Shown here one piece after another: positions 6,017 through 10,421 of a DNA stretch of 64,000 bases. Numbering within the stretch: the stretch's first letter is position 1; the number at the start of each line of letters is the position of its first letter. The translations under genes were made by a program, and so were the position numbers. The stretch lies in NCBI RefSeq assembly GCF_003018235.1, contig NZ_CP027437.1, one strand, 5' to 3'. The notes beneath the pieces were generated by a model. That model saw nothing but the letters and a program-made list of their open reading frames with translations. It was not told the DNA's origin and ran no database searches. The DNA comes from Escherichia coli (GTDB taxonomy: Bacteria > Pseudomonadota > Gammaproteobacteria > Enterobacterales > Enterobacteriaceae).

Positions 6017-6029
6017 TTGGCATAGCATG

Positions 6030-6051
6030 AAACATAGCAAAGGCTATGTTT
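6030..6051. promoter_or_regulatory. MntR operator candidate: palindrome AAACATAGC-AAAG-GCTATGTTT
   Basis: near-perfect inverted repeat immediately upstream of the mntH start codon. Confidence 0.6.
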
Positions 6052-6054
6052 TAG

Positions 6055-7302
<1,248 letters not shown>

Positions 7303-7330
7303 TTCAACTGGCGTCGTACCAGGCATCACT

Positions 7331-8702
<1,372 letters not shown>

Positions 8703-8723
8703 GTGCTCCATTGACGGACGCGT

Positions 8724-9050
8724 TTAATGGCGATGCCCATGTCCGCGGCCTTTTCCGCGATGATCGTCACGATCGCGCCAGCCTTCACGATAGCCACGCT
8801 CATACGCTTTACGCTTATCCCAGCCACGATGGTAGCCATTATCATGACGCCACCAGCGGTTCTTACGCCATTCATAATTGCGATGCCAGTAGTCACGGTC
8901 GCGCCAGTGACCACCGTCCCAGTAATTACCGTAATGATCGCGATCGCCAATTTGTAATTTGATTGATGGCAGTAGGGTGATTTCACCTGCGTTTGCCGCA
9001 AGCGGGGTAAATGCCATCAGGGCGGCCGCCAGAAACAGTGACCTGAACAT
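8724..9050 (-). CDS. ypeC: secreted low-complexity protein rich in His/Arg/Trp/Asp/Tyr (DUF2502-like), 108 aa
   Basis: ORF track; signal-peptide-like N-terminus [21 protein letters not shown]; synteny. Confidence 0.8.
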
Positions 9051-9164
9051 TGTTATTCTCCTTCACGATCGAAGCCGTCAGCGGCCTGTTAACGCAATAT
9101 TACGGGGAGGTAAAGCCCCGTATCATCGCCATAACTCTTAAATCATAAAGGAGAGCATTTTTTG

Positions 9165-10421
9165 CTAAACGTTATCGTGGGGTGGCTGTTGCTTCGGACG
9201 ATTGACCATCATCATCGGCTTACCTGCTAATAACAGCCAAGCCGGAAGCATGACGATACAGAGCAGCGGTAGCAATGTGGTATTGGGTACAACGACTGCC
9301 GCCATAAAAAGACTTAACCAGCCATCACGTGTTACCACCAGCACGATGCCGAGAATAGCGCAGGAAACGGTTATTGCCGCTGGAACGGCGGGTACGTGCT
9401 CATGCAGCATCAACCCTAATGCCACGCCGACAAACACTGCCGGGAAGATTCGCCCACCGCGAAAGCCACTGGCGGCAGCAACGACCAGGGCGGCAAGTTT
9501 AATTACCGCCAGCAAAAAGTAATCGCTGGTGCTGAAAGCCTGATTTGCCACCATCTGCTGCATCTCATCCAGCCCTTTAAACAGCGAAACTGGTCCACCA
9601 ATAACCCCCAGAATACCGAGAATAAATCCGCCAATACCCAGCACGAGCACCGGATTTTTTATTTGATGCATCATCGCGTGCAACCGTGGTAAGCACCATA
9701 CGGCGACCATCCCTGCTGCGATGGCAATCGCCGCGACAATTGCACCGCTGAGAATATCGGTCATTTCCATTTTTCCGTAATGCGCAATGGGCAGTGAAAA
9801 ATGGGGATGGAAAAATAATCCGGTAGTAAGTGCACCAGCTGCTGCCGCCATTAACGGCGCAAAAAGACGATCCCATAGCGGAACTTCACTACTACCATTT
9901 AAGGTTTGCGAAAATATCAACGCCGCCGCAACAGGTGTGCCAAACAGTGCGCCGATGGTGCCGGCAGAGGCTAAAATAGTCCACTCCATTCGGTTGACGC
10001 GCGGTAACAGACGAGCGCCAATGGCAACCGCAAGGGCGATATTGACGGTCATGATCGGATGTTCCGGCCCCAGGCTGACGCCGCCAGCAAGACCGAGAAT
10101 TAATGCTACGATAAGTCCAGGTAGCGCAGAGGGCGGAACCGGTGCGCCGATCAGCGGTTCACAGGCGGGGTCTGGTCCAGCATGCCCCTGGCTGAAACGG
10201 ATAACCAACCCCACCGCAATACCTGTTAGCGTTAATATGGCGATGATCCAGAAAGGTGAATCCTGAGCTATCCCCAGAGTTCCCGGCAGTCGTTGCCAGA
10301 GCAAATTCTGTAATACCGAGGCGATTTTCATCACCACAATCAGAATAAGACTGGACGCAATCCCAATTGCCACGGCGGGGAGCGATAATAACAACATGGT
10401 TCTGGCTCGCGGATGGAGCAT
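9165..10421 (-). CDS. yfeO: ClC-type voltage-gated chloride channel family membrane protein, 418 aa
   Basis: ORF track; polytopic membrane protein; synteny next to glk. Confidence 0.8.

Follow-up and report, generated by a model that had tools for sequence, protein, structure and literature searches.

Transcription of ypeC rises 42-60 fold when LolCDE is inhibited, together with that of the Rcs regulon genes osmB, ycfJ, bdm and wca (PMC5105897), and falls 24-fold in an O157 strain in which rcsB is disrupted (PMC5343319). YaaX, the paralogue of YpeC within the DUF2502 group, has likewise been published as Rcs-regulated. The gene has also been linked to the MarA and SoxS activators: the 15-mer GCATTTTTTGCTAAA is the MarA ChIP-seq site assigned to ypeC in ETEC and ypeC is among the SoxS ChIP-exo targets (PMC5684230), and the same 15-mer is a SoxS ChIP-seq site in Salmonella (PMC10268841). 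We found no experimental function for YpeC in the searchable literature, and a 2025 paper still calls the protein uncharacterized. Few periplasmic proteins are induced by Rcs as strongly as YpeC and YaaX, and their biochemistry represents a modest annotation gap. REP elements, one of which lies beside ypeC, are a known target of the insertion sequence IS621 (Durrant et al. 2024, PMC11208160).

Here we describe ypeC and its surroundings in a stretch of 64,000 nucleotides of Escherichia coli DNA (the window). The protein, the neighbouring genes (nupC-mntH / ypeC-yfeO-glk) and the upstream marbox are those of K-12, and the K-12 ypeC locus differs from that of the window only by the presence in the latter of a 1.28-kb IS621 in the REP and by nine synonymous substitutions. 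The main outcome of our analysis is that the IS lies 3' of both of the convergent genes mntH and ypeC, leaving the putative stress-responsive promoter of ypeC untouched. Insertion of IS621 into a REP is textbook behaviour for this element, and there is little that is new at the locus.

Identity and conservation of ypeC

8724..9050, minus strand: coding sequence of ypeC, an ATG-to-stop open reading frame of 108 codons plus stop, encoding the DUF2502 protein YpeC

The peptide quoted in a preliminary description of this DNA is the exact product of this open reading frame, and is 100% identical to YpeC of E. coli K-12 (b2390, UniProt P64542). It matches the Pfam family DUF2502 (PF10697) over the full length of the profile, from position 1 to 90 of 90 (E=3.1e-24), with a score of 85.4 bits where the cut-off is 27, and RefSeq labels it ypeC, 'DUF2502 domain-containing protein YpeC'. 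The locus has the order nupC-mntH / ypeC-yfeO-glk, as in MG1655 except for the IS, and orthology to b2390 is supported by both protein identity and yfeO/glk - mntH/nupC synteny. The gene name that had been proposed from the sequence is thus borne out by identity to the K-12 protein, by Pfam and by the RefSeq annotation, and it is practically certain that the gene is ypeC, the orthologue of b2390. The nine nucleotide differences from K-12 are all synonymous third-position changes, indicating that the reading frame is under purifying selection. Of the 5,426 complete E. coli genomes, 5,421 have the ypeC region (481-bp query of ypeC and its flanks, covered at 80% or more), and ypeC is an ordinary, annotated, widely conserved core gene that was already known. 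DUF2502 is a narrow family, with 278 matches in a collection of 5.8 billion sequences; a set of 1.84 billion proteins yields 85 representatives when clustered at 50% identity. In E. coli EC488 (NZ_CP109874.1, near 1514051) ypeC is split, with a gene for a DUF4158-domain protein (Tn3-type transposase) annotated at the break, so that loss of ypeC is tolerated in at least one isolate.

A non-coding frame left open by chance in biased sequence would be the simplest alternative, and the skewed composition of the gene does yield other long open reading frames in overlapping frames, such as 8591..9001 on the minus strand (136 aa) and 8711..8962 on the plus strand (83 aa). The conservation pattern rules this out, with nine of nine differences from K-12 synonymous in the ypeC frame; the 278 homologues with the same Pfam domain, the conserved signal peptide and ribosome-binding site and the published strong, regulated transcription of ypeC argue in the same direction, and the probability of a chance frame is negligible. 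A further alternative-frame ORF lies over ypeC at 8727-8957 on the plus strand (76 aa); these overlapping frames result from the skewed codon composition and show no sign of being genes.

Structure of the YpeC protein

8988..9050, minus strand: predicted signal peptide, residues 1-21 (read by hand; putative cleavage after A-N-A)
8841..8960, minus strand: conserved DUF2502 core module, residues 31-70 (from invariant residues, pLDDT and identity with YaaX)
8727..8840, minus strand: variable basic His/Gly/Arg-rich tail, residues 71-108, predicted to be disordered (from pLDDT and alignments)

Read manually, the N-terminus of YpeC has n-, h- and c-regions and an A-x-A cleavage motif followed by GE, with no lipobox cysteine, and the hydrophobic core and A-x-A preceding (G/A)E are kept in the family alignments (A2-A4). 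The signal peptide that had been claimed for the protein is borne out by these observations, which point to Sec-type export. The mature protein of 87 aa and about 11 kDa would consist of 18% R, 15% G (14.9%), 11.5% D, 10% H, 9% W and 8% Y, with a pI of about 10 and a GRAVY of -2.1 (-2.12). Within a core of 74 aa, R, D, H, W, Y and G account for 62 residues against a background of 24% in the long ORFs of the 64,000-nt window (binomial P about 6e-27), while A, V, L, I, M, F, C, P, S and T together contribute a single residue where 58% would be expected.

This strong compositional skew is what the preliminary description had reported as a low-complexity, H/R/W/D/Y-rich peptide, and that part of the claim stands. 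However, mature YpeC is not pure or featureless low complexity, since residues ~28-70 form a module that is conserved across the Enterobacteriaceae and in the paralogue YaaX. Conservation was judged over 61 orthologues and then over 23 distant members with identities as low as about 30%. Residues P28, G35, D36, D38, G41, Y43, W44, D45, G46, W49 and W55 are invariant or near-invariant in the family, and the motif I-G-D-R-D-x2-G-x-Y-W-D-G-x2-W-R-D-x2-W is nearly invariant in the DUF2502 alignments; YpeC carries both of the features of this group, the signal peptide and the IGDRD-x2-G-x-YWDG-x2-WR module. Tandem Repeats Finder detected no DNA repeats inside ypeC, so the repetitiveness of the protein does not stem from recent DNA slippage. 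After about residue 70 the tails of DUF2502 proteins differ between genera in both length and sequence, with variants that include HGHGHGHH extensions, other His/Gly-rich tails, Pro/Arg-rich tails and duplications of the HRGWDK unit; in a few proteins the whole module occurs twice.

An AlphaFold2 model built on the 61-sequence alignment has pLDDT of 82-90 at residues 31-70 and below 50 at residues 75-108. The core is thus predicted to be folded, with short strands, one helix and a hairpin in the model, and the tail (residues 71-108) is probably disordered. A sequence profile search of the PDB with YpeC gave nothing meaningful (best E=0.43), and Foldseek of the model against the PDB gave no match at an E of 0.001 or better. 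With Pfam at E up to 10 the only family matched was DUF2502; kinship with cell-wall-binding, YXWGXW or RcnB-type families, which we had suspected, received no Pfam match within this limit. Across the Pfam, PDB profile and Foldseek searches no similarity to known carbohydrate-, peptidoglycan- or lipid-binding domains was detected.

The ypeC upstream region and its regulation

9058..9063, minus strand: Shine-Dalgarno sequence AAGGAG, 7 nt upstream of the ATG (read from the sequence)
9074..9085, minus strand: small hairpin GCCG-CTGA-CGGC in the putative ypeC leader (alignment A1)
9097..9102, minus strand: candidate -10 hexamer TAATAT (proposed from conservation)
9155..9169, plus strand: marbox GCATTTTTTGCTAAA, a MarA/SoxS site (exact 15-mer match), in reverse orientation relative to ypeC

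The spacer between yfeO and ypeC is 115 bp long, and the marbox overlaps the yfeO stop codon. The identical 15-mer places ypeC of the window in the MarA/SoxS/Rob regulon, with binding in vivo known from ETEC and Salmonella, and its reverse orientation, distal to the core promoter, corresponds to the class I arrangement of PMC10268841. Six genera (Escherichia, with E. coli, and Citrobacter, Klebsiella, Enterobacter, Cronobacter and Shimwellia) share the marbox, a block around GAGT...CGATG, the element CGTAATAT, which is invariant among them, the leader hairpin and the ribosome-binding site GAAGGAGA; these upstream elements are lost in more distant relatives. The leader hairpin, a GGCC(N)..GGCC-type stem that is kept in the six genera with a loop that varies, may be a regulatory or stabilising element. 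A scan of positions 7250-9250 on both strands with the sigma-70 consensus found no complete -35/-10 promoter. The lack of a full -35/-10 pair upstream of ypeC fits an activator-dependent promoter, and with no consensus match the promoter was assigned by conservation and by the published ChIP site. The best explanation of these features would be that the yfeO-ypeC spacer (9051..9170) contains an activator-dependent promoter that belongs to ypeC itself.

The published dependence of ypeC on Rcs was not mirrored by a recognisable binding site, as no convincing RcsB or RcsAB box was seen in the 150 bp upstream of the gene. Neither TN(G/A)GAN4TC(T/C)NA nor (G/A)GAN4TC(T/C) was matched in this interval, and the best match to TAAGAATATTCCTA was 7 of 14. 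Since no canonical RcsB box was found, Rcs control of ypeC may be indirect.

Gene arrangement and the IS621 copy

6064..7302, plus strand: mntH, encoding an Nramp Mn2+/H+ symporter (Pfam Nramp, E=1.8e-128; RefSeq)
7388..8665, minus strand: IS621 copy of the IS110 family, 1.28 kb (from empty-site alignment)
7386-7387 and 8666-8667: CT core dinucleotide flanking IS621 (CT on the minus strand, AG on the plus strand), present in duplicate
7493..8473, minus strand: IS621 recombinase gene, 326 aa (Pfam DEDD_Tnp_IS110 and Transposase_20; NCBIfam)
8474..8665, minus strand: IS621 left end, the bridge-RNA-coding non-coding region, with -10 TATTAT and target guide ATCGGGCCT
8668..8699, minus strand: REP hairpin immediately 3' of ypeC, preserved between the gene and the IS (from RNA folding)

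The genes mntH, on the plus strand, and ypeC, on the minus strand, are convergent. Placing ypeC downstream of mntH, as had been done before, is therefore wrong in transcriptional terms, and the arrangement on opposite strands is conserved across genera: the convergent pair is also found in Klebsiella, Enterobacter, Cronobacter, Shimwellia and two relatives with only 36-40% identity. The gene upstream of ypeC varies in spite of the upstream block that the six genera share, being yfeO in E. coli and an aldo-keto reductase gene elsewhere, and one relative keeps the glk-side synteny without mntH. At the other end of mntH, an 18-codon ORF at 6027-6083 on the plus strand overlaps the start codon of mntH. 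Its counterpart in strains C5 and VCSW7 is annotated as a small 'hypothetical protein', and it has the position of ypeD (b4819) in K-12.

The preliminary description was right that an IS separates mntH from ypeC, and Pfam, NCBIfam and the empty-site alignment agree in placing an IS621 copy physically between them. Its breakpoints were set by aligning the window with K-12 and strain VCSW7, both of which have an empty site here; the flanks in VCSW7 are 100% identical to the window. Membership in IS621 is supported by a DEDD/IS110 recombinase (which also matches NCBIfam NF033542, 'IS110 family RNA-guided transposase', with E=6e-76), a non-coding left end upstream of the gene, the CT core and the REP target. 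The left end was assigned by comparing the sequence with the description in PMC11208160; an Rfam scan returned no bridge-RNA family, only sub-threshold matches of REP type (naRNA4), including one to this REP-derived family at 8667..8746. The termini, ...ACAGTAT|CT|TGTAT..., are those of the published IS621 donor (PMC11208160). The right end carries a -35, TTGCAG, which would be joined to the -10 TATTAT of the left end only in the excised circle. This IS621 copy is a routine bridge-RNA-directed insertion into a REP between convergent 3' ends.

The same REP carries IS621 elsewhere in the species, and it appears to be a hot spot that IS621 has entered repeatedly and independently, not in one inherited event. 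The copy in the window is about 2.4% divergent from the same-site copies in other genomes, and copies 99.8-99.9% identical to it occur elsewhere in E. coli. In strain C5, the only same-site genome that was checked, the IS is 97.6% and the flanks are 96.8-98.1% identical to the window, while in VCSW7, with its identical flanks, the site is empty. VCSW7 also lacks about 15 bp (CGTTAAAGAGACGGT) beside the IS621 target (positions 1770-1790 of its locus, L009, against 7366-7385 of the window); this segment is present in both the window and K-12. The difference is a small indel between the two REPs.

It had been suggested that the IS could affect ypeC expression, and this finds no support, because the IS and the control region of ypeC are at opposite ends of the gene. 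What we find in 9051..9170 is a putative promoter region of ypeC's own, essentially what the preliminary description had named as refuting such an effect, and it is very probable that the promoter is unaffected by the IS. A material change in ypeC expression could still have come about through 3'-end formation, mRNA stability or blocked mntH read-through, but we consider this highly improbable. Only 58 nt separate the stop codon of ypeC from the IS, which is inserted at the 3' foot of the REP and lies 3' of both genes, but the promoter region, leader, coding sequence and REP hairpin of ypeC are all outside the IS and intact. The REP stem is somewhat weaker than the same hairpin in K-12 (-22.7 kcal/mol, z=-2.5, against -30.1 kcal/mol), but most of this weakening is due to a G-to-A change that VCSW7, with its empty site, shares. 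No promoter in the IS or reading out of it in either direction was predicted by the consensus sigma-70 scan, and among hybrid promoters at the integrated junctions there was none at the ypeC flank with the left end and a poor match at the mntH flank with the right end. Among 5,426 complete E. coli genomes, 54 have IS621 at the same REP, with the ypeC annotation intact. Only subtle effects of the IS, on the 3' end of ypeC or through convergent transcription, are conceivable.

Two observations concern transcription across the IS itself. In the IS621 right end, at 7450-7469 on the plus strand, a strong hairpin of intrinsic-terminator type (8-bp stem with 6 G-C pairs and then T7) is oriented against the recombinase gene and would stop transcription entering the IS from mntH. 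Such read-through would otherwise be antisense to ypeC, which is a point in favour of an IS effect, although the terminator would, if anything, shield ypeC. From the other side, ypeC points into the promoter-less IS621 left end (8474-8730, minus strand), and between them lies only the REP hairpin, with no U-tract terminator. Transcripts running on from ypeC, which is inducible 40-60 fold, could extend through the bridge RNA region and the recombinase gene.

Proposed role of YpeC

We propose that ypeC is transcribed leftwards from its own activator-dependent promoter, with the marbox and the -10-like element in the yfeO-ypeC spacer, and that Sec export would yield a hydrophilic, basic mature protein with a folded W/Y/D/G module and a disordered Arg/His/Gly tail. 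On envelope stress, YpeC and its paralogue YaaX would accumulate in the periplasm, where they may attach to anionic polymers or surfaces of the envelope by stacking of their aromatic residues and by the charge of Arg and His, and so act as a protective or buffering factor. Candidate ligands would be peptidoglycan, LPS or phospholipid head groups, periplasmic glucans or colanic-acid precursors. As an explanation of YpeC as a whole this is the best that we can offer, with a probability of roughly 0.45. The binding of anionic envelope polymers by YpeC, taken on its own, is a tentative suggestion, prompted by an invariant set of residues that is aromatic, acidic or glycine and not His or Cys, by the cationic disordered tail and by membership in an envelope-damage regulon. 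Invariant W, Y, D, G and P are typical of glycan-binding or stacking surfaces, not of metal sites. The negative outcome of the searches for kinship with known carbohydrate-, peptidoglycan- or lipid-binding domains speaks against the suggestion.

YpeC could instead be a periplasmic metal-binding or metal-buffering protein, acting through its His-rich tail and Asp clusters and coupled to MntH. The adjacency of ypeC and mntH, kept from E. coli to relatives only 36-40% identical, would be in agreement with such a coupling, but the two genes are convergent and so cannot be co-transcribed, and the relative with glk-side synteny (L012) has kept this context without mntH. Mature YpeC is 10% His and has a C-terminal GHGHRH, with HGHGHGHH in other genera, and the recurrence of His-rich tails in orthologues and in YaaX keeps this alternative alive. 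However, these tails are frequent and not universal, as some members have a Pro/Arg-rich tail in place of the His-rich one, and no His or Cys is invariant in the family: H104 is the only such residue invariant among close orthologues, and none is among distant members. The reported regulators are Rcs and MarA/SoxS, with no metal regulator in the literature searched. The preliminary description had suggested metal or envelope-polymer binding, a guess made from composition. Given the invariant P/G/D/Y/W residues and regulation by Rcs and MarA/SoxS, polymer binding is somewhat likelier than specific metal binding, and we regard a metal-buffering role as unlikely.

Alternatively, YpeC may have no specific ligand and be a disordered periplasmic protectant, hydrophilin/LEA-like or chaperone-like, that would act in bulk against osmotic, desiccation or aggregation stress. 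Hydrophilins have a glycine content above 6% and high hydrophilicity, and are a compositional class, not a homologous family. With 14.9% Gly and a GRAVY of -2.1, YpeC fits this composition, about half of the protein is predicted to be disordered, and ypeC is co-induced with osmB, yjbJ and spy. The conserved 40-residue module, with its invariant W/Y/D/G residues and confident AlphaFold2 prediction, points instead to a specific fold and a partner, and a protectant role without a ligand seems to us improbable.

Comparison with known systems

The IS621 copy shares with the published IS621/IS110 elements (PMC11208160) the recombinase domains, the termini, the CT core, the location at the 3' foot of a REP and the split -35/-10. 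Its target in the window, ATCAGACCTAC (ATCAGAC-CT-AC), is one base off the common natural IS621 target ATCAGGCCTAC. When the target (window 8666-8676 and 7380-7387) is compared with the guide ATCGGGCCT, there are mismatches at positions 4 and 6, which would both be a guide G opposite a target-strand T, that is, G:T wobbles. The A is already present in the empty-site relative VCSW7, and so was part of the target at insertion, which suggests that the IS621 guide tolerates a wobble at a second position.

With respect to regulation, YpeC resembles OsmB, YcfJ, Bdm, YpfG, YaiY, Ivy and Spy, small exported or envelope proteins of unknown or protective function that are co-induced with ypeC under Lol inhibition and depend on rcsB. 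This likeness is regulatory only, as no similarity to YpeC in sequence or fold was detected. YaaX (b0005), in contrast, is a true relative, the one DUF2502 paralogue in E. coli, and is 62% identical to YpeC over 65 aa of signal peptide and module. It shares with YpeC the signal peptide, the EITL(L/V)PS(I/V)... module, a His-rich tail and published Rcs regulation, and differs in its locus (thrC-yaaX-yaaA) and in the character of its tail, which is Pro/His-rich (HGPPPPPRHHKK...) in YaaX and RD/W/Y-rich in YpeC.
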